Shown here in pieces: positions 22,940 through 61,630 of a stretch of 64,000 nt of DNA. Each line of letters opens with the position of its first letter. Position 1 is the first letter of the stretch. Location: assembly GCA_963723125.1 (NCBI GenBank), contig CAVRPQ010000004.1, forward strand, positions 230,644 to 294,643, in the 5' to 3' direction. The position numbers and the translations under genes were made by a program. Below the pieces are notes generated by a model. That model searched no databases, was not told the DNA's origin, and was given only the letters and a program-made list of their open reading frames with translations. This DNA is from an uncultured bacterium (GTDB lineage Bacteria > Verrucomicrobiota > Verrucomicrobiia > Limisphaerales > UBA11358).

Positions 22940-23300
22940 TCACTTGTCCGAATGGCTTGCGATTGGGAGATTTGACTCTGAATTCCCACTTGATTTGACC
23001 AAGGGTTGGATGGATTCAATTTCCTGCCGGGCTGACGCGTTTGAGGAGTCAAGTTGCAAGACCGCACGGAACCCGGCAAGCACCGGGGCGGGTCTTTTTT
23101 GTGCGGCCAGGGTTATTCCCAGATATAAATGGAGCGGGGCAAAATCCGGCCGGTAATGAATCGCCGCCCTGAATTCTTTCTGTGCTTCAGCGTTTTCCCC
23201 GCTGTCAGCCAACTGAATTCCCAGCAGGTAATGAGCCTGTCAAAATTCCGGCTTCGTTTTGACAACCGCTTGCAGGCAAGGCGCTTTTAGAACAATCAGT
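22940..23300 (-). pseudogene. Remnant of a TPR/SGNH gene (3' end only; paralog of 24356..26782)
   Basis: QAHYLLGIQLADSGENAEAQKEFRAAIHYRPDFAPLHLYLGITLAAQKRP... parallels the last ~110 aa of the intact gene. There is an in-frame TGA where the intact copy has W (PDFWQAHY versus PEF*QAHY), and the remnant has no 5' part. Confidence 0.65.
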
Positions 23301-23375
23301 TAGAACTGCTCAAAAAAAAGAGCTGTCATCTTGATCGCTCCAGGACATCTTAGCTATTGTTTATACGAATACTTA

Positions 23376-52878: not shown

Positions 52879-52954
<76 letters not shown>

Positions 52955-53027: not shown

Positions 53028-53044
53028 GGGTAGTGGGCTACTTT
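53028..53044 (+). repeat. Left terminal inverted repeat of the IS1-family element
   Basis: The sequence is GGGTAGTGGGCTACTTT. Confidence 0.7.
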
Positions 53045-53089
53045 CGTTTTAGATTTCCATTTTTCGCTTGATTGTGCCATGCTTGCGGC

Positions 53090-53221
53090 ATGGTCAAGCC
53101 AAATAAGAAACGTAAGGGTGATTCGGCTCAAATCGCCTACGGCGTCGTTCAGGACGCAATACGGCTCACAGAAACGCCGATTAAGGCACCGAAACGCCAA
53201 AGCAAAAGGAAACGCGGCTAA
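53090..53221 (+). CDS. Possible 43-aa highly basic peptide
   Basis: The translation is MVKPNKKRKGDSAQIAYGVVQDAIRLTETPIKAPKRQSKRKRG. It is below the ORF-track cut-off and I recognise no homology. Confidence 0.2.
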   Translation: MVKPNKKRKGDSAQIAYGVVQDAIRLTETPIKAPKRQSKRKRG

Positions 53222-53277
53222 CCGGCTCATTTTGCGGTTGCCGTGAGTTTTTGTATTGCATACTATGGTTAGCAGTT

Positions 53278-53645
53278 ATGGAACTTGAACAAGAACCAAA
53301 CAAAGCCCATTTGACGGGGTATCGGATTTACGACAAAGAAGCCAAACGGCGGAAAAAGAAAAACCCGCTGCCGTATCTTCATCCTAAATTGCCAGATAAG
53401 AAGTTCGACATTATTTACGCTGACCCACCGTGGGATTACAACGGCAAGTTCCAATTCGACAAAAGCAGTAAGAGCGCCGATGAGATTGATTTGTCCCGTA
53501 ACATTTTTATCAGTTCAGCCGTTTTCAAATACCCGACATTGAAGCTCGAACAACTGGTTCAAATTCCCATACAGGAGATTGCAAAAGATGATTGCCTTTT
53601 ATTCATGTGGACGACCGGCCCGCAACTGGTTCATGCCATTGTAGA
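53278..53645 (+). pseudogene. MT-A70-family N6-adenine DNA methyltransferase, 3'-truncated
   Basis: The sequence FDIIYADPPWDYNGK...YPTLKLEQLVQIPIQEIAKDDCLLFMWTTGPQL carries the DPPW motif. The WGF and C-terminal half are missing, and the rest of track ORF 53251..53991 is antisense read-through. Confidence 0.7.
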
Positions 53646-53841
53646 TTTGCTTCTCTACGTCAGGCGGCAGTTCAATATCAGCGTAGATGTTCTTGAATTC
53701 ATTTGGCTTTCCACGAACCCGAAAGTTGGTGTCCTGAAACGCCTGTTGCATCACCGTGAAGAAAGATTTTTCGGCATGACCGGCATTTTCACCGCTGTAG
53801 TCCTGCCATGTGCCCCGACCGCTCAGTTCACTTTTTCCCAT
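53599..53841 (-). pseudogene. Probable restriction endonuclease gene, N-terminal ~65-70 codons only
   Basis: It lies immediately downstream of, and 4 nt from, the C-protein gene and is convergent with the methyltransferase. The assignment is positional only; I recognise no family motif. Confidence 0.35.
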
Positions 53842-53844
53842 AGG

Positions 53845-54057
53845 TCAGAATTTCAGGAGTTGGTCAATCGGAACGCCGAGGGCTTTGGCAATTTTCTCAA
53901 TGTTTTCCAACGTGATATTTTTCTCGGCACGTTCAATCATTCCGATATACGTGCGATGAACCCCGGCGCATTCGGCAAGCTCCTCTTGTGACCAATGCAA
54001 TGCGGCCCGTCTCTCGCGCACTTTTTTCCCAAATTTCAAGAGGACATTGCTTTTCAC
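53845..54057 (-). CDS. XRE-family HTH protein of the R-M controller (C-protein) type
   Basis: LHWSQEELAECAGVHRTYIGMIERAEKNITLENIEKIAKALGVPIDQLL closely matches the C-protein pattern (G.HRTYI..IERG..N......KIA.AL). Confidence 0.75.
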   Translation of the reverse strand: MKSNVLLKFGKKVRERRAALHWSQEELAECAGVHRTYIGMIERAEKNITLENIEKIAKALGVPIDQLLKF

Positions 54058-54077
54058 AGAAAATGAACTTTACGGAT

Positions 54078-54112
54078 TCGCTAACTGTGGTTCTACATAC
54101 TAAAGTTAGCGA
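54078..54112. promoter_or_regulatory. Candidate C-box operator (35 bp)
   Basis: TCGCTAACT-N17-AGTTAGCGA is a perfect 9-bp inverted repeat, 21-55 bp upstream of the C gene start. A second copy lies at 55752-55786. Confidence 0.45.
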
Positions 54113-54207
54113 TTTTGAAAGCTCCAAACCTCTTAGAATGGCTAAAAACATGAAATTCTTCCATTTTCAGCCCTTAAAAAATAATGGAAGAAAATGGAAG
54201 ATTTTGG

Positions 54208-54235
54208 TTGACGGCGGCTGTAATTTTGGTAAATT
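54208..54235 (+). promoter_or_regulatory. Extended -10 promoter, probably giving a leaderless mRNA for 54242..54622
   Basis: The arrangement is TTGACG-N13-TGgTAAATT (16 nt between the TTGACG and TAAATT hexamers). The -10 element ends 6 nt before the ATG. A second copy lies at 55882-55909. Confidence 0.4.
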
Positions 54236-54241
54236 GGCCTC

Positions 54242-54622
54242 ATGTTAAACACGAACATTGTCATAGACCGGCAGACGTTAGAGGACACCATAAGTGACCT
54301 GTCCGAATCAAAAGAACTTCTCTCGCGTGAGCGGGACAGCATAGACAAGCGCATTACTGCGCTCAATGACAGGATAACGTCTTTGAAGTTGAAACTTGAA
54401 CAGTCCGCCAGAGCAAGCAACGGAAAATCGCCCCGGCTGCGCAAAGGTGAAGGCGTGAATGGCATTTTGAAAGTGTTGACCGGCGAAAATGGGATTGGAT
54501 TAAGTCAGGCTCAAATTGCCGAAAAGACTGGTATTTCCGGGGCTTCGGTATATCGCACGCTGACTAAAAACCCGGACAAGTTTGTGCGTGGAACTGATGA
54601 TTTATGGAGATTGAAAAAATAA
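54242..54622 (+). CDS. Coiled-coil plus winged-helix DNA-binding protein, function unknown
   Basis: The N-terminal heptad-rich region is LSESKELLSRERDSIDKRITALNDRITSLKLKLEQ. The C-terminus is GLSQAQIAEKTGISGASVYRTLTKNPDKFVR. Confidence 0.55.
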   Translation: MLNTNIVIDRQTLEDTISDLSESKELLSRERDSIDKRITALNDRITSLKLKLEQSARASNGKSPRLRKGEGVNGILKVLTGENGIGLSQAQIAEKTGISGASVYRTLTKNPDKFVRGTDDLWRLKK

Positions 54623-54675
54623 CGAAAAGACCAGCGGGTGCTTTCGAGGGCGGCTCGCTGGTCAATTTTTCGGGT

Positions 54676-54767
54676 GGCGCGTTGCCAGAGCGGTTTAATG
54701 GAGCGGACTGTAAATCCGCTGACGGTGTAAGGAGCACCGTCCGTCCGTCCGAATCGGACACGCGCCG
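54676..54767 (+). tRNA. Class-II tRNA-Tyr(GTA)-like gene, no encoded CCA, atypical T-loop
   Basis: My manual fold is as follows. The acceptor stem is GGCGCGT/ACGCGCC (7 bp). U8 is present, the D arm is CCA(G)-AGCGGTTTA-(A)TGG, and the anticodon arm is GCGGA-CTGTAAA-TCCGC. The variable arm is GACGGTG-TAAGGAG-CACCGTC and the T arm is GTCCG-TCCGAAT-CGGAC. The D and anticodon regions parallel E. coli tRNA-Tyr. Confidence 0.55.
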
Positions 54768-54814
54768 CTCGTCTATTACGATAACAAAGCCCTCGTTTAG
54801 ATTCAAGAATTTTT

Positions 54815-55047
54815 ATGAATAAATTAACGACGGCGGAAAGAGCCAAGATAATCAACTGCCTTGTTGAAGGTTGCTCGCTGAGAGCCGCGCAGCGCATGAC
54901 GGGTTTTGCCAAAAAAACCGTCGCCCGATTGCAGGTTGAAATCGGGCAGGCATGCGCCGCATACAGCGACAAAATCATGCGGAACCTGCCATGCAAGGTT
55001 GTTCAGGTGGACGAGGTTTGGACATTCACCTATTGCAAGCAGGCGAA
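54815..55047 (+). pseudogene. IS1-family transposase, first 77 codons only (cut by the duplication junction)
   Basis: It is identical to the start of 56489..57328 up to ...FTYCKQANI, then joins methyltransferase sequence. Confidence 0.8.
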
Positions 55048-55319
55048 TATCTTCATCCTAAATTGCCAGATAAGAAGTTCGACATTATTTACGCTGACCC
55101 ACCGTGGGATTACAACGGCAAGTTCCAATTCGACAAAAGCAGTAAGAGCGCCGATGAGATTGATTTGTCCCGTAACATTTTTATCAGTTCAGCCGTTTTC
55201 AAATACCCGACATTGAAGCTCGAACAACTGGTTCAAATTCCCATACAGGAGATTGCAAAAGATGATTGCCTTTTATTCATGTGGACGACCGGCCCGCAAC
55301 TGGTTCATGCCATTGTAGA
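55048..55319 (+). pseudogene. Second copy of the MT-A70 fragment, lacking its own start
   Basis: This is duplication copy 2. It is fused in a different frame to the transposase stub (chimeric ORFs 54815..55216 and 54952..55665). Confidence 0.6.
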
Positions 55320-55515
55320 TTTGCTTCTCTACGTCAGGCGGCAGTTCAATATCAGCGTAGATGTTCTTGAATTCATTTGGCTTTCCACGAACCCGAAAGT
55401 TGGTGTCCTGAAACGCCTGTTGCATCACCGTGAAGAAAGATTTTTCGGCATGACCGGCATTTTCACCGCTGTAGTCCTGCCATGTGCCCCGACCGCTCAG
55501 TTCACTTTTTCCCAT
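55273..55515 (-). pseudogene. Second copy of the putative endonuclease stub
   Basis: Its translation is identical to 53599..53841. Confidence 0.35.
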
Positions 55516-55518
55516 AGG

Positions 55519-55731
55519 TCAGAATTTCAGGAGTTGGTCAATCGGAACGCCGAGGGCTTTGGCAATTTTCTCAATGTTTTCCAACGTGATATTTTTCTCG
55601 GCACGTTCAATCATTCCGATATACGTGCGATGAACCCCGGCGCATTCGGCAAGCTCCTCTTGTGACCAATGCAATGCGGCCCGTCTCTCGCGCACTTTTT
55701 TCCCAAATTTCAAGAGGACATTGCTTTTCAC
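55519..55731 (-). CDS. Second copy of the C-protein-type HTH gene
   Basis: Its translation is identical to 53845..54057. Confidence 0.75.
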   Translation of the reverse strand: MKSNVLLKFGKKVRERRAALHWSQEELAECAGVHRTYIGMIERAEKNITLENIEKIAKALGVPIDQLLKF

Positions 55732-55915
55732 AGAAAATGAACTTTACGGATTCGCTAACTGTGGTTCTACATACTAAAGTTAGCGATTTTGAAAGCTCCA
55801 AACCTCTTAGAATGGCTAAAAACATGAAATTCTTCCATTTTCAGCCCTTAAAAAATAATGGAAGAAAATGGAAGATTTTGGTTGACGGCGGCTGTAATTT
55901 TGGTAAATTGGCCTC

Positions 55916-56296
55916 ATGTTAAACACGAACATTGTCATAGACCGGCAGACGTTAGAGGACACCATAAGTGACCTGTCCGAATCAAAAGAACTTCTCTCGC
56001 GTGAGCGGGACAGCATAGACAAGCGCATTACTGCGCTCAATGACAGGATAACGTCTTTGAAGTTGAAACTTGAACAGTCCGCCAGAGCAAGCAACGGAAA
56101 ATCGCCCCGGCTGCGCAAAGGTGAAGGCGTGAATGGCATTTTGAAAGTGTTGACCGGCGAAAATGGGATTGGATTAAGTCAGGCTCAAATTGCCGAAAAG
56201 ACTGGTATTTCCGGGGCTTCGGTATATCGCACGCTGACTAAAAACCCGGACAAGTTTGTGCGTGGAACTGATGATTTATGGAGATTGAAAAAATAA
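55916..56296 (+). CDS. Second copy of the coiled-coil/winged-helix protein gene
   Basis: Its translation is identical to 54242..54622. Confidence 0.55.
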   Translation: MLNTNIVIDRQTLEDTISDLSESKELLSRERDSIDKRITALNDRITSLKLKLEQSARASNGKSPRLRKGEGVNGILKVLTGENGIGLSQAQIAEKTGISGASVYRTLTKNPDKFVRGTDDLWRLKK

Positions 56297-56349
56297 CGAA
56301 AAGACCAGCGGGTGCTTTCGAGGGCGGCTCGCTGGTCAATTTTTCGGGT

Positions 56350-56441
56350 GGCGCGTTGCCAGAGCGGTTTAATGGAGCGGACTGTAAATCCGCTGACGGT
56401 GTAAGGAGCACCGTCCGTCCGTCCGAATCGGACACGCGCCG
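56350..56441 (+). tRNA. Second copy of the tRNA-Tyr(GTA)-like gene
   Basis: This is duplication copy 2 of 54676..54767. Confidence 0.55.
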
Positions 56442-56488
56442 CTCGTCTATTACGATAACAAAGCCCTCGTTTAGATTCAAGAATTTTT

Positions 56489-57328
56489 ATGAATAAATTA
56501 ACGACGGCGGAAAGAGCCAAGATAATCAACTGCCTTGTTGAAGGTTGCTCGCTGAGAGCCGCGCAGCGCATGACGGGTTTTGCCAAAAAAACCGTCGCCC
56601 GATTGCAGGTTGAAATCGGGCAGGCATGCGCCGCATACAGCGACAAAATCATGCGGAACCTGCCATGCAAGGTTGTTCAGGTGGACGAGGTTTGGACATT
56701 CACCTATTGCAAGCAGGCGAATATCCCAGAGCGTTTTCAGGGTGATGAAAGCATCGGCGACACTTGGACGTGGATTGCCATTGATGCCGACAGCAAACTG
56801 ATCCCAAGCTGGCATATTGGAAAACGGGACGCGACCGCCGCATATCACTTCATTCACGATTTAGCGGGGCGGCTGGCGCATCGCGTGCAACTTACCAGTG
56901 ATGGCCACAGGCCATATCTGGAAGCCGTTGAATCTGCGTTTGGCGCGGAGATTGATTATTCGATGTTGGTGAAATTGTATGGGCATGACTTGTCGCCAGA
57001 AGCCCGTTATTCGCCGCCAAAGTGCATTGGGGCGCGTCGCCGCAGGATTATCGGCAATCCAGACCGCAATCGTATTTCAACGTCATTTGTGGAACGACAA
57101 AACTTGACCCTCCGCATGAGCAGCCGCCGGTTCACACGACTGACCAATGCCTTCAGCAAGAAACTGGAAAATCACAAGTGGGGATGCGCCTTGTATTTCT
57201 TCCATTACAATTTCTGCCGGATTCACCAAACATTGCGTGTAACGCCAGCGATGGAAGCTGGTATCACCGACCATGTTTGGAGTTTGGAAGAAATTGCAAA
57301 CCTGCTAGAACAACCAGTAACCGCATGA
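56489..57328 (+). CDS. IS1-family (single-ORF type) DDE transposase
   Basis: It has an HTH N-terminus, then VQVDEVWTF...WTWIAIDADSKL...LTSDGHRPY...FVERQNLTLRMSSRRFTRLTNAFSKKLENH...YNFCRIHQTL. This parallels InsB blocks (DE.W, TDG..Y, ERhNLnLRq...R.t..FSK). Confidence 0.85.
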   Translation: MNKLTTAERAKIINCLVEGCSLRAAQRMTGFAKKTVARLQVEIGQACAAYSDKIMRNLPCKVVQVDEVWTFTYCKQANIPERFQGDESIGDTWTWIAIDADSKLIPSWHIGKRDATAAYHFIHDLAGRLAHRVQLTSDGHRPYLEAVESAFGAEIDYSMLVKLYGHDLSPEARYSPPKCIGARRRRIIGNPDRNRISTSFVERQNLTLRMSSRRFTRLTNAFSKKLENHKWGCALYFFHYNFCRIHQTLRVTPAMEAGITDHVWSLEEIANLLEQPVTA

Positions 57329-58071
57329 AAGAATTAATTAAAATCTACAATCAAGGCTCTGATTTGATGGCCGATTCTCGCGCCGTTGCCAAGCTTTTTG
57401 GAGTTCAACACGAAAGCCTTCGCAGACTCATTGAAGAACACGCGGCCCAGATTGAACAATTAGGGGTTTTCCGATTTGAAATCGGGAAACCTCCGGCTGG
57501 CTCTTTGGGCGGACGGCCAGAGAGGTTTTGCTACTTGAATTTCGACCAGATTGCGCTTCTGCTGATGTTGTCAAAGCCGACCGATGTAACCAAAGATTTT
57601 CGGCTTCGCCTTATTATTGCGTTCCGCGATGCCAGAAAAAGATTACGTCCGATTGACCGTGCGCTCCTTTCCATGCCGGACGACTGGCGGAAAACCTTTC
57701 CAGATGACTTTTACGCGGCATTGCTGAAACTTTATGGGGATAGATATGAGAAATCGGAAAACAAACCGAGCTGGGTTGGCCGATGGACAAACCGTTTTAT
57801 TTACGATCCGCTTTTTGCGGGACTTCCAGATGAGCTAAAACGGAGACGCGAGATTCATGGCTGGGAAAGCGGAGCGGTTTCATGGAATAAACTTCATCAA
57901 TTTATTGAAAAGCACGCCAAGAAGAATTTAGAAAAGCACCTTATCAAAGTTACTGGGCTTTTGGAAGCGGCTACGAATCCGGCGCATTTCTTGGAATTGT
58001 TCGCTTCCGTTTTCTACGGTCACAAACAGCTTTTGCTGCTTGGCCAAAACCTGCCAGATGAATTTGCGTGA
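57325..58071 (+). CDS. Phage-type regulatory protein (Rha-like N-terminus, P63C-like C-terminal domain)
   Basis: The N-terminus is LMADSRAVAKLFGVQHESLRRLIEEH...GRPERFCYLNFDQIALLL. The C-terminus is FPDDFYAALLKLYG...GRWTNRFIYDPL...HQFIEKHAKKNLEKHLIKV. Its ATG overlaps the transposase TGA (ATGA). Confidence 0.6.
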   Translation: MKELIKIYNQGSDLMADSRAVAKLFGVQHESLRRLIEEHAAQIEQLGVFRFEIGKPPAGSLGGRPERFCYLNFDQIALLLMLSKPTDVTKDFRLRLIIAFRDARKRLRPIDRALLSMPDDWRKTFPDDFYAALLKLYGDRYEKSENKPSWVGRWTNRFIYDPLFAGLPDELKRRREIHGWESGAVSWNKLHQFIEKHAKKNLEKHLIKVTGLLEAATNPAHFLELFASVFYGHKQLLLLGQNLPDEFA

Positions 58072-58076
58072 ATTTG

Positions 58077-58093
58077 AAAGTAGCCCACTACCC
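58077..58093 (-). repeat. Right terminal inverted repeat of the IS1-family element
   Basis: AAAGTAGCCCACTACCC is the reverse complement of 53028-53044. Confidence 0.7.
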
Positions 58094-58272
58094 AGCGATT
58101 CGTTTAACAACCGTTCCCGTTCGACCGATTTGGCGTCGCTGCCCGTCCGGGAAATCTTGACGGCCGTCGCCGCCGTCAGCGGGAATTCTTTGACGAGCGT
58201 GCGCAGCAGGATTCCCTCATTCTGGTTCAACTCGTATTTCCACCCTGCCCCGCTCTGTTTGAGCAATCTCAT
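58094..58272 (-). pseudogene. clpS-downstream gene (DUF2017-like by my recollection), only the first ~60 codons left
   Basis: MRLLKQSGAGWKYELNQNEGILLRTLVKEFPL...ERERLLNESL ends exactly where the right IR begins. The remainder of track ORF 57928..58272 is read-through into the element. Confidence 0.4.
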
Positions 58273-59935: not shown

Positions 59936-61630
59936 GTGAAATTAAATCAGTGGTTTTTGTTTTTAATGTTGAGCGTCGCAGTTGCTCAACCAACTCCTGG
60001 TTCGTTCCCGGTCGCACACAGCGGGACAACGGACGCATTCAAAGACAAAACCGTCGAACTTCAATCGGAGGATGCAGACGCTTACGTCCTTCGCGGCGCC
60101 GTCAAGGCGGACAAAGGTGATCTGGACGGCGCCATCGCCGACGACACCAAAGCCATCGAACTCAAGCCGGATGATGCGGACGCCTATGTTAATCGGGGCA
60201 TTGCGAAGCGGGCCAAAGGCGACTTGGACGGCGCCATTGCCGACAGTACCAGGGCCATCGAACTGAAACCGGATGATGCAGAGGCCTGCGTTCTTCGCAG
60301 TGCGGCGAAGATGGACAAAGGCGATCTGGACGGCGCCATTGCCGACGCCAGCAAAGCCATCAAACTCAAACCGGATGATTTGAACGCCTATGTCAATCGA
60401 GGCATTGCAAAGAAAGCCAGGGGCGATCTGGACGGCGCCATTGCCGATGCCAGCAAAGCCATTAAACTCAAACCGGATGCGGTGAAAGCGTACATTCTTC
60501 GCAGCGCGGCGAGGGCAGTCAAAGGCGACCTGGATGGCGCCATCGCCGACAGCACCAAAGCCATCGAACTCAAACCGGACAATGTGGAGGCCTATGTCAA
60601 TCGGGGCGTTGCGAAATTAGCCAAACGCGAGCCGGATGCCGCCATCGCGGACTTTACCAAAGCCATCGAACTCAAACCGGATGATGTGGATGCCTACATC
60701 AATCGCGGCATTGCGAAGCGGGCCAAAGGCGACCTGGACGGCGCCATCGCCGACAGCACCAAAGCCATCGAGCTTAAGTCGCATGTTTCGGAGGTCAATG
60801 CCGGTCGGAACACTGCGACAGGAAGCAAAGGCAACTTGGACGTAGCCTTGGCAAACACCGCCAAAGCCAGCGAGCCCCAACCAGACAACGCAGAGGCCAA
60901 CGCCAATCAGGACGTTGCGAAAGGAGGCAAAGGCGATTCGGATGTCGCCGCGGCAAGTGGCACCAAAGCCAGCGAACTGAACTCGCGCGATGCGGGGGCC
61001 TACGACAATCGAGATAATGCGAAGGGAGGCAAAAGCAGTTTGAACCCCGCCCTGCCAGGCAGCACCCAGGCCAGCGAAGTTAAACCGGAAGATGCGGAAG
61101 CCTATGTCAATCGTGGCGTTGCGAGATTAGCCAAACGCGACCTGGACGGCGCCATCGCCGATTTCAGCCGGGCTATCGAGTCCAAACCGGAAGACGCGGA
61201 CGCCTACGTCAATCGCGGTGTTGCGAAACTGGCCAAAGGCGATGCGGACGCGGCCATCGTGGACTTCACCAAAGCCCTTGAACTCAAACCGGATGATGCG
61301 ATTGGCCACTATTTTCTGGGTTTTTGCTATGCCAACGGCGAAGGTGTGAAAAAGGATGCGGTGGCCGCGGTGCGAATGTATCGCCAGGCCGCCGGGCAGA
61401 ATCTCGCTCAAGCTCAATGGCGGTTGGGTCTCTGTTACTATAAGGGTGAAGGCGTGGCCAGGGATGTGGTTGAGGCGTATGTGTGGTTCAGCCTGGCGGC
61501 CCGGACAGATTCAGAGGCAGCCAGGAGCCGCGACCAACTGGAGAGGGAGTTGACTCCCCAACAATTAAAGGCCGCGCAAAAGCGCACCAGAGCGTTGCAA
61601 TCGCAAATCGAGGCCGGGTTCAAACTTTGA
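59936..61630 (+). CDS. Secreted TPR-repeat protein with C-terminal Sel1-like repeats
   Basis: It has at least 12 units of GDLDGAIADxTKAIELKPDDADAYVNRGIAKRAK (102-bp DNA period). The tail is GHYFLGFCYANGEGVKKD...WRLGLCYYKGEGVARD. The start codon is GTG. Confidence 0.8.
   Translation: MKLNQWFLFLMLSVAVAQPTPGSFPVAHSGTTDAFKDKTVELQSEDADAYVLRGAVKADKGDLDGAIADDTKAIELKPDDADAYVNRGIAKRAKGDLDGAIADSTRAIELKPDDAEACVLRSAAKMDKGDLDGAIADASKAIKLKPDDLNAYVNRGIAKKARGDLDGAIADASKAIKLKPDAVKAYILRSAARAVKGDLDGAIADSTKAIELKPDNVEAYVNRGVAKLAKREPDAAIADFTKAIELKPDDVDAYINRGIAKRAKGDLDGAIADSTKAIELKSHVSEVNAGRNTATGSKGNLDVALANTAKASEPQPDNAEANANQDVAKGGKGDSDVAAASGTKASELNSRDAGAYDNRDNAKGGKSSLNPALPGSTQASEVKPEDAEAYVNRGVARLAKRDLDGAIADFSRAIESKPEDADAYVNRGVAKLAKGDADAAIVDFTKALELKPDDAIGHYFLGFCYANGEGVKKDAVAAVRMYRQAAGQNLAQAQWRLGLCYYKGEGVARDVVEAYVWFSLAARTDSEAARSRDQLERELTPQQLKAAQKRTRALQSQIEAGFKL

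Follow-up and report, generated by a model that had tools for sequence, protein, structure and literature searches.

A conserved tRNA joining a tyrosine anticodon arm to a serine-type body in the transposase leader of an IS1-family element from a soil-type verrucomicrobial genome

Why should a transposon carry a tRNA gene directly upstream of its transposase gene, and which amino acid would such a tRNA accept? The question arises from a 64,000-nt stretch of contig CAVRPQ010000004.1 (positions 230,644 to 294,643; hereafter the window, in whose own numbering positions are given), which belongs to the genome assembly of an uncultured bacterium of the Verrucomicrobiota. In this window an IS1-family element harbors a tRNA-like gene with the anticodon GUA. 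An earlier note, made from the letters alone, had described it as a tRNA-Tyr-like gene in two copies that deviates from host-type tRNAs in its variable arm, C55, G73 and lack of an encoded CCA, and had offered a nuclease-resistant or decoy tRNA, a structured leader RNA or an attachment-site relic as explanations. Comparative sequence analysis suggests another answer: the element tRNA is probably a selected cargo tRNA of mismatched identity, co-transcribed with the transposase gene and charged with serine.

The flagged sequence is a genuine tRNA gene. ARAGORN called a tRNA-Tyr(gta) at 54676-54768 and again at 56350-56442, both on the forward strand; its only other call in the window is a tRNA-Phe at 52879-52954 on the reverse strand. 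With the Rfam tRNA model RF00005, both tRNA(GTA) copies scored 47.0 bits (E = 2.3e-8) over the full model (1-71) and thus reached the gathering score of 29. The default gathering run of the window listed the tRNA-Phe alone (73.4 bits), and the two copies were recovered in an E-value mode with permissive filters; the default omission is apparently an effect of the speed filters. Compared with the class-II tRNAs of the host (tRNA-Tyr, 54.1 bits; four tRNA-Ser, 53.5-60.6 bits), the score of the element tRNA is slightly below normal. The two copies are indeed present and identical, but they reside in a single perfect tandem duplication of 1,674 bp per unit, and thus represent one gene and not independent evidence.

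The full cloverleaf proposed earlier is confirmed by these calls, and all four of the deviations are present in the sequence. The acceptor stem comprises 7 bp (GGCGCGU/ACGCGCC) and is followed by a normal U8-G9 linker. The D arm consists of a 3-bp stem (CCA/UGG) plus G13.A22 and the D-loop AGCGGUUUA, and the anticodon stem is perfect (GCGGA/UCCGC) with the loop CUGUAAA. In the variable arm, a stem of 7-8 bp (GACGGUG/CACCGUC) with the loop UAAGGAG is flanked by a 1-nt connector on either side. The T arm combines the stem GUCCG/CGGAC with the loop UCCGAAU, which places C at position 55. At the 3′ end, G73 is followed by CUC. The conserved core nucleotides U8, A14, G18G19, U33, R37, G53, U54, C56, A58 and C61 are all present, with U55 alone replaced by C. 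In the orthologous tRNA of a related element (L004), U55 and an encoded CCA are found, together with A19:U56 instead of G19:C56. The variable-arm loop UAAGGAG (54726-54732; 56400-56406) also forms a perfect Shine-Dalgarno-like motif, which is probably fortuitous, since no start codon lies within range and the loop of L004 reads UUCGUAG.

Comparison with the host's own tRNAs revealed that the variable arm, G73 and the D-loop together make up a serine identity set and are not random oddities. The D-loop GAGCGGTTTAA occurs letter for letter in host tRNA-Ser(GGA) and differs from that of host tRNA-Tyr. The variable arm shares the layout of host tRNA-Ser (1 nt + 7 bp + 1 nt), whereas that of host tRNA-Tyr has a 3-bp stem and a 3-nt 3′ connector. 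Positions 9 and 73 are both G, as in host tRNA-Ser, and both A in host tRNA-Tyr. In contrast, the anticodon arm GCGGACTGTAAATCCGC is one compensated pair away from that of host tRNA-Tyr (GCAGACTGTAAATCTGC) and differs from that of host tRNA-Ser; over the segment GCGGACUGUAAAUCCGC it exactly matches the arm found in canonical tRNA-Tyr genes of phages on viral contigs. By these comparisons, the element tRNA is a chimera of a Tyr anticodon arm and a Ser-type body, and the label tRNA-Tyr-like fits its anticodon arm alone.

What this means for aminoacylation can be read from published identity rules. Tyrosylation depends critically on A73 and U35, and G73 of tRNA-Ser is an antideterminant against tyrosyl-tRNA synthetase (TyrRS) and leucyl-tRNA synthetase (PMC9976931). 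Serine identity resides in the variable arm, the anticodon being unused, and C2:G71 is an antideterminant against seryl-tRNA synthetase (SerRS) (PMC9976931; rules also in PMC7609411). Among the features required by TyrRS, the element tRNA has GUA with U35, and lacks A73 and the short Tyr-type variable arm. Judged by the SerRS rules (PMC9976931, PMC7609411), it has the long Ser-type variable arm and G73, and its pair 2:71 is G2:C71, hence no C2:G71. The element tRNA should accordingly be a substrate of SerRS, not of TyrRS: rejection by TyrRS is expected because position 73 is G instead of A, and charging by SerRS because this enzyme ignores the anticodon.

The host assembly (14 contigs, 4.48 Mb, 56% GC, 49 tRNA genes) is a soil-type verrucomicrobial genome and encodes a separate, canonical tRNA-Tyr(GTA) of 86 nt with A73 and an encoded CCA (C6:1043881-1043966), which makes the element tRNA an extra gene. 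The latter is absent from 24 genomes of the same genus, 16 of the same order and 400 further genomes of the phylum; in these 400, the only matches are partial, 33-55 nt long, and pair its 5′ half with ordinary tRNA-Tyr or tRNA-Ser genes. Given this distribution, a captured host tRNA was rejected as its source. Its T-arm with C55 (GTCCG-TCCGAAT-CGGAC) is also present in Ser-type tRNAs encoded in phage tRNA arrays on the IMG/VR contigs L203, L206, L211 and L218, and is thus not unique to the element tRNA. The viral matches to the T-arm and anticodon-arm patterns lie in large-phage tRNA arrays with no IS1 transposase nearby. Two of these contigs (L206 3829-3916; L218 204-291) encode an 88-nt class-II Ser-type tRNA with G73, CCA and C55, to which ARAGORN assigns the anticodon GUU, a further mismatch of identity and anticodon, located outside any IS1 element.

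To what extent the tRNA is conserved was assessed by comparing the identity of orthologous tRNAs with that at 4-fold silent sites of the neighboring transposase genes. The tRNA of the window and that of L004 are 85% identical, against 40% at the silent sites; the corresponding values are 93% and 29% for L084 and L172, 95% and 44% for L085 and L086, and 100% and 64% for L005 and L173. The anticodon arm is invariant in three of the four pairs, and in the remaining one, L085 and L086, it differs at the middle anticodon base only. Between the window and L004 there are 14 differences, four of which fall in Watson-Crick stems and form two compensatory pairs (C5:G68 to G:C, and a variable-stem G:C to A:U); a tertiary pair also changes in concert, from G19:C56 to A19:U56. 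All five differences between L085 and L086 are located in loops, and a single compensated pair in the T stem distinguishes L084 from L172. The pattern clearly points to a tRNA kept by purifying selection.

Is the position of the gene equally conserved? The tRNA precedes the transposase gene by 47 nt (ATG at 54815 for copy 1), as first noted, and its location inside a mobile element is confirmed by inverted repeats that reach from 53029 to 58092. A set of 166 loci that encode homologous transposases was drawn from metagenomes, genomes and assemblies; those with a transposase identity of at least 73% are termed the close clade. In this clade, 8 of 10 distinct relatives possess a tRNA on the same strand 47-55 nt upstream of the transposase gene (114 nt in L004). 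Over all loci, a same-strand tRNA within 350 nt upstream was found in 13 of 157, compared with a single opposite-strand case and with 4 of 145 in the downstream control. The tRNA lies inside the inverted repeats wherever these could be located, and the relatives occupy unrelated sites with 8-bp target duplications of their own (L086, AGCCGAAA; L088, GGCAGAAA; L044, GTTTCGTC).

The tRNAs found in this slot are diverse. The L004 orthologue (GUA) has a Ser-type body with G73 and CCA. GUA is also found in L084 and L172, there on a 70-nt body with G3:U70 and A73. L085 (UAU) and L086 (UGU) share a Ser-type class-II body with G73; L005 and L173 (loop CCUGUAA) as well as L083 (GUU) carry G-1:C73; and L090 has a class-I body with GCU and G73. 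A degenerate tRNA-like remnant (UGU) occupies the slot of L006, and no tRNA is present in that of the close relatives L088 and L171. Among distant relatives, the body is Ser-type in L009 (UAU, G73), L011 (UGC, U73) and L023 (UAG, G73), and Leu-type in L022 and L069 (UUA, A73). Most slot bodies accordingly carry Ser, Ala (G3:U70), His (G-1:C73) or Leu marks, and their anticodons vary. We infer from these sequences, about a dozen, that most bodies bear the marks of anticodon-independent synthetases, as would be expected if the RNAs stay chargeable while their anticodons change.

Closely related elements may nevertheless differ in the tRNA that they carry. The transposases of L005, L090 and L083 are 93-94% identical and their flanks 68-84% and 71-72% identical, yet their tRNA bodies are unrelated (~64%); the window and L084 likewise combine near-identical transposases and flanks with unrelated tRNA bodies. 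One sub-clade of the transposase tree contains both GUA bodies, the Ser-type and the G3:U70-type, intermingled, and all 4 of its 4 tRNA-bearing members have GUA. Because transposases and flanks are nearly identical and the tRNA bodies unrelated, these sequences indicate that the tRNAs are exchangeable cassettes among related IS1 elements. The triplet UGU occurs in the anticodon loop of 6 of the 8 distinct tRNA bodies of the close clade (CUGUAAA, CCUGUAA, CUUGUAA, CUGUUAC). In L005 and L173 the loop resembles a Tyr loop displaced by a single base, and its position 33 is C. The host encodes tRNA-guanine transglycosylase, the enzyme that recognizes UGU; this coincidence of motif and enzyme may be fortuitous.

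These observations enable us to propose a putative course of events. The tRNA would be a cargo of the IS1 transposon, held in a dedicated leader slot in the order hairpin, tRNA, spacer of ~47 nt and transposase gene. It would be transcribed within the transposase mRNA, since the window contains no sigma-70-like promoter between the two genes; one weak match lies upstream of the preceding gene, orfA. RNase P and 3′ trimming would release the tRNA, and the host nucleotidyltransferase would add CCA, an enzyme of the PolyA_pol family (CCA-adding type) being encoded in the genome. Following the identity rules above, TyrRS would reject the product and SerRS would charge it. The serylated tRNA might then compete with tRNA-Tyr at UAY codons, resulting in low-level serine insertion; alternatively, a charged yet poorly decoding tRNA might act at the ribosome. 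The explanation we tentatively favor, with slightly less than even confidence, is that the tRNA is produced as part of the transposase mRNA and aminoacylated by SerRS. A wider generalization seems doubtful: IS1 transposons of soil bacteria would be vehicles of an exchangeable miscoding-tRNA cassette made together with the transposase, whose body is charged by a synthetase blind to the anticodon (SerRS in the window) and whose anticodon reads codons of a different amino acid (UAY in the window). Active transposons would thereby impose a defined, transmissible missense pattern on the host proteome, and the cassette would be swapped between elements under selection on the anticodon arm.

Several points weigh against serine charging and miscoding by a co-transcribed tRNA. 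Constitutive insertion of Ser for Tyr would burden the host, and no gain for the transposon is apparent. C55 stands in place of the near-universal U55, and CCA is not encoded, whereas every complete host tRNA gene displayed in full encodes it. RNAfold indicated that leader and trailer can pair and lengthen the acceptor stem by ~5 bp, which could hinder maturation of the tRNA. In a codon alignment of nine transposase genes, no column covaried with the anticodon of the partner tRNA, and the best columns were conserved Tyr/Thr positions. Furthermore, in the study of Mukai et al. 2017, irregular tRNAs associated with transposon or toxin-antitoxin genes (the allo-tRNA-UAU group and G-1 species) were inactive in E. 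coli translation even if chargeable (PMC5389517). Self-recoding of the transposase was considered separately and rejected: no codon tracks the anticodon, and the transposases beside UUA (ochre) tRNAs contain no in-frame stop.

Alternatively, the tRNA shape might serve only the structure or processing of the transposase mRNA, and the released RNA would have no function in trans. Cleavage there by RNase P or at the 3′ side might, for instance, define where the mRNA begins or shield it from read-through, possibly in concert with the hairpin. Such a cis-acting module, which we regard as rather unlikely, would account for the fixed position (38-55 nt upstream of the transposase gene) and strand of the tRNA in the close clade, for the lack of a promoter behind it in the window, for the acceptor stem extended by leader-trailer pairing, and for a slot that seems to accept any tRNA body. 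The hairpin just upstream of the tRNA also fits: in eight related elements, its eight basal pairs are formed without exception (100%), six of them with changes on both sides. Moreover, the hairpin apex can pair with a spacer segment that lies 19-20 nt from the ATG. Such complementarity occurs in most elements at an equal distance from the start codon, and in more than one version of the sequence, as other complementary segments are found at the same positions in L083 (TGCGGG/CCCGCA) and L173 (GGCTTAT/ATAAGCC); in L005 and L090 the complementarity amounts to 4-5 nt only. At fixed alignment columns, however, this helix is 50% paired, and the per-locus shuffle p values are mixed, ranging from 0.0025 to 0.9. 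The long-range pairing that would bracket the tRNA is a candidate and suggestive only.

A structured leader RNA, as proposed in the earlier note, agrees with the position and the covarying hairpin but leaves the anticodon arm unexplained, which RNase P does not need and which is the best-conserved part in 4 of 4 orthologue pairs. Nearly all anticodon loops have 7 nt with U33 and A37, the exception being L005/L173 with C33, and the anticodon-independent identity sets on most bodies would be superfluous for a processing handle. In addition, L004, L009, L022, L023 and L069 have a promoter with a palindromic operator between tRNA and transposase gene, so that in these elements the tRNA lies outside the proximal leader. 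Near-consensus promoters (TTGACA-N17-TATAAT type) were observed 30-40 nt before the transposase ATG in L004, L009, L011, L022, L023, L091 and L012. Their spacers are palindromic, e.g. ATGCTTGC-ACGA-GCAAGCAT, and probably represent operators; this arrangement does not occur in the hairpin-tRNA clade, including the window.

Less likely still, and in our view improbable, is a decoy or spare tRNA, whose Tyr anticodon arm would engage an anticodon nuclease, toxin or modification enzyme and thereby protect tRNA-Tyr, or which would act as an RNA antitoxin or regulator, with no part in decoding. The anticodon arm as the most conserved part of the gene would be readily understood, as would the fact that 4 of 4 tRNA-bearing sub-clade members, with two unrelated bodies among them, retain the GUA loop and the stem bases beside it (GACUGUAAAU), and the over-representation of UGU-containing loops in the close clade. 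Conflict-type cargo (Rha/P63C here, KilA-N/BstA_C in L085, Fic near L174) and the irregular tRNAs described beside toxin-antitoxin genes (PMC5389517) point in the same direction. The nuclease-resistant or decoy tRNA of the earlier note gained no support from a domain search of the host genome, which revealed no PrrC/RloC-type AAA_13 protein; a colicin-E5 domain search gave no match in the host and none in any control genome either, hence is uninformative. A spare tRNA would also require Tyr identity, against which G73 argues, and neither the retention of chargeable identity sets on the bodies nor the wide variation of anticodons among the relatives is explained. The least probable explanation is a decaying pseudogene, that is, a host or phage tRNA captured by chance and drifting, or an attachment-site relic: C55, the missing CCA, the degenerate remnant in L006 and the tRNA-less close relatives L088 and L171 would suit it, but the tRNA is conserved far above silent sites, its stems are all intact with compensatory changes, the gene is absent from the 24 same-genus and 400 phylum genomes, and a relic was rejected because IS1 is a DDE-type transposon with no attachment site and the gene lies between its inverted repeats, here as in relatives at unrelated insertion sites.

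Between the inverted repeats, the element comprises in order a short open reading frame (ORF), a methyltransferase fragment, orfA, the hairpin, the tRNA, the transposase gene and a Rha/P63C gene (Table 1). The transposase has thousands of homologues, the close ones being labelled 'IS1 family transposase' by NCBI and JGI, and the element is one which we take to be of the ISMhu11-like single-ORF IS1 type in the ISfinder classification. The position of orfA holds variable cargo among relatives, with detectable similarity in L172 alone; a role of orfA as a conserved partner protein was rejected on this ground. The transposase and Rha/P63C genes overlap in the sequence ATGA (57325-57328), where the stop of the former meets the start of the latter, and conflict-type cargo is also found just 3′ of the transposase gene in L085 (KilA-N/BstA_C) and L087 (weak HNH). 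The MT-A70 ORF matches the first third of its family profile and continues with unrelated sequence; it is a truncated restriction-modification remnant and passenger DNA of the insertion sequence (IS).

The units of the tandem duplication are 100% identical in the assembly and show 4-nt microhomology at their borders. One breakpoint lies inside the methyltransferase fragment and the other after nucleotide 233 of the transposase gene, and at the junction the first 233 nt of that gene are fused to the methyltransferase fragment at the 4-nt microhomology. As a result, the intact transposase gene is preceded by the second tRNA copy only, the first copy being followed by the truncated gene at 54815-55047. 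The flanks of the element lack a target duplication (CAATTTCG versus CAGCGATT). In a same-genus genome (G016), both flanks are conserved exactly up to the IS ends (C347:2856-3105 and 23263-23373; window 53028/53029 and 58092-58094) yet sit ~20 kb apart on one contig, so the IS here is associated with a 20-kb deletion, which fits the absent target duplication and arose either by adjacent deletion or by recombination between two IS copies. Beyond the element, a gene for a 564-aa TPR/Sel1 protein (59936-61630) contains 11 tandem 102-nt (34-aa) repeats with a DNA identity of 61-78%.

Table 1. Features of the element and its tRNA leader, in window coordinates
Feature	Position	Strand	Evidence and remarks
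tRNA gene copy 1 (positions 1-73)	54676..54767	+	Anticodon GUA, Ser-type body; ARAGORN, Rfam tRNA 47 bits, cloverleaf, host-tRNA comparison
tRNA gene copy 2	56350..56441	+	Identical to copy 1; copy preceding the intact transposase gene
Left terminal inverted repeat GGTAGTGGGCTACTTTC	53029..53045	+	IS1-type GGnnnTG end; same repeat at the ends of relatives with 8-bp target duplications
Right terminal inverted repeat	58076..58092	-	Exact reverse complement of the left repeat; no matching target duplication
IS1-family transposase gene, intact single ORF, 279 aa	56489..57328	+	Weak Pfam DDE_Tnp_IS1 and DDE_Tnp_IS240 matches
orfA, 126 aa, coiled coil and C-terminal helix-turn-helix	55916..56296 (copy 1 54242-54622)	+	Weak Pfam HTH matches; directly upstream of the hairpin
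Rha/P63C-domain protein gene	57325..58071	+	Pfam P63C 2.3e-13, Phage_pRha 1.3e-9; ends 4 nt before the right repeat
ORF with truncated MT-A70 (DPPW) methyltransferase fragment	53251..53991	+	Pfam MT-A70 7.2e-7, profile positions 1-58 of 172
Tandem duplication, two units	53374-55047 and 55048-56721		Repeat search; self-BLAST 1678-nt matches, 100% identity; ORF translations
Conserved hairpin, 12 nt upstream of the tRNA; apex CGAGGGC 54645-54651	54629..54663 (copy 2 56303-56337)	+	RNAfold
Spacer GCCCTCG, 19 nt before ATG	54789..54795 (copy 2 56463-56469)	+	Complementary to the hairpin apex; p 0.0045 in the window

Natural tRNAs in which the anticodon does not fit the identity challenge the uniform reading of the code within a cell, and they have so far been known mainly as oddly folded allo-tRNAs. 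The present case is a normally folded mismatched tRNA in a defined slot of a widespread transposon family, clearly under purifying selection and subject to cassette exchange. If it is indeed charged with serine and decodes, transposons would constitute a horizontal route for missense or nonsense suppression, with a bearing on how the genetic code evolves, on mistranslation induced by stress and on mobile-element biology. Should it work in cis or as a decoy instead, it would represent a new kind of transposase regulation or conflict RNA.

Among known systems, single-ORF (ISMhu11-type) members of the IS1 family encode an IS1-homologous DDE transposase, have GGnnnTG ends and carry variable passenger genes. 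The present element resembles them in its DDE transposase, its GGnnnTG ends, the 8-bp target duplications of its relatives and its variable passengers, and differs from a typical IS1 in that this copy has no target duplication and bears an internal tandem duplication. In the thrU-tyrU-glyT-thrT-tufB operon of E. coli, tRNAs lie directly upstream of a protein gene on the same strand and are freed by RNase P and other nucleases. The element tRNA likewise precedes a protein-coding gene on the same strand; however, the tufB tRNAs are housekeeping tRNAs of matched identity, whereas the element tRNA is mismatched and mobile, and its co-transcription is putative. Some phage-encoded tRNAs, for their part, counter defence systems that target tRNAs, as tRNA-Tyr does against PtuAB systems of the retron type. 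The element tRNA is comparable in that it is likewise supernumerary, has a Tyr anticodon and is carried by a mobile element with phage-type regulator genes, but phage anti-defence tRNAs are functional Tyr isoacceptors, whereas it combines G73 with a Ser-type body in a genome in which no PrrC/RloC-type nuclease was found.

In its combination of a Ser body with a non-Ser anticodon, the element tRNA resembles the mistranslating anticodon variants of tRNA-Ser, natural and engineered, which stay serylated, as SerRS ignores the anticodon, and insert serine at whichever codon they read (PMC9976931). Those variants are mutants or constructs of chromosomal tRNA-Ser genes; the element tRNA carries a full Tyr anticodon arm and is borne by a transposon, and its miscoding is putative. 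Beyond Mukai et al. 2017 (PMC5389517), we found no description in the literature of tRNA genes as a regular cargo of IS1 or other insertion sequences, and the link to transposons that we noted in that paper amounts to a general remark and a single case of overlap with a 'transposon-related protein'. The authors describe the irregular tRNAs as vaguely associated with transposable elements and toxin-antitoxin genes. The allo-tRNAs described there have an 8/4 or 9/3 fold (12-bp acceptor branch), Ser or Ala identity and many anticodons, and in E. coli they cause Ser or Ala to be incorporated at non-cognate codons; other irregular tRNAs from acidobacterial metagenomes include G-1 species charged by HisRS (PMC5389517). 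Our tRNAs share with the allo-tRNAs and the 'polycistrons of irregular tRNAs' the long variable arm, Ser, Ala or His marks with non-cognate anticodons, many anticodons on related bodies, the loose link to transposon or toxin-antitoxin genes, an Acidobacteria-type soil metagenome setting and the common UAU anticodon (PMC5389517). Relatives of the element match individual classes of that study, namely UAU (L009, L085), G3:U70 (L084, L172) and G-1:C73 (L005, L083) (PMC5389517). Unlike the cases described there, the element tRNA comes from a verrucomicrobial host, occupies a fixed slot in an IS1 transposase leader between inverted repeats, and keeps the canonical 7-bp acceptor and 5-bp T stem instead of 8/4 or 9/3 (PMC5389517); it is an allo-tRNA-like phenomenon in the canonical 7/5 fold.

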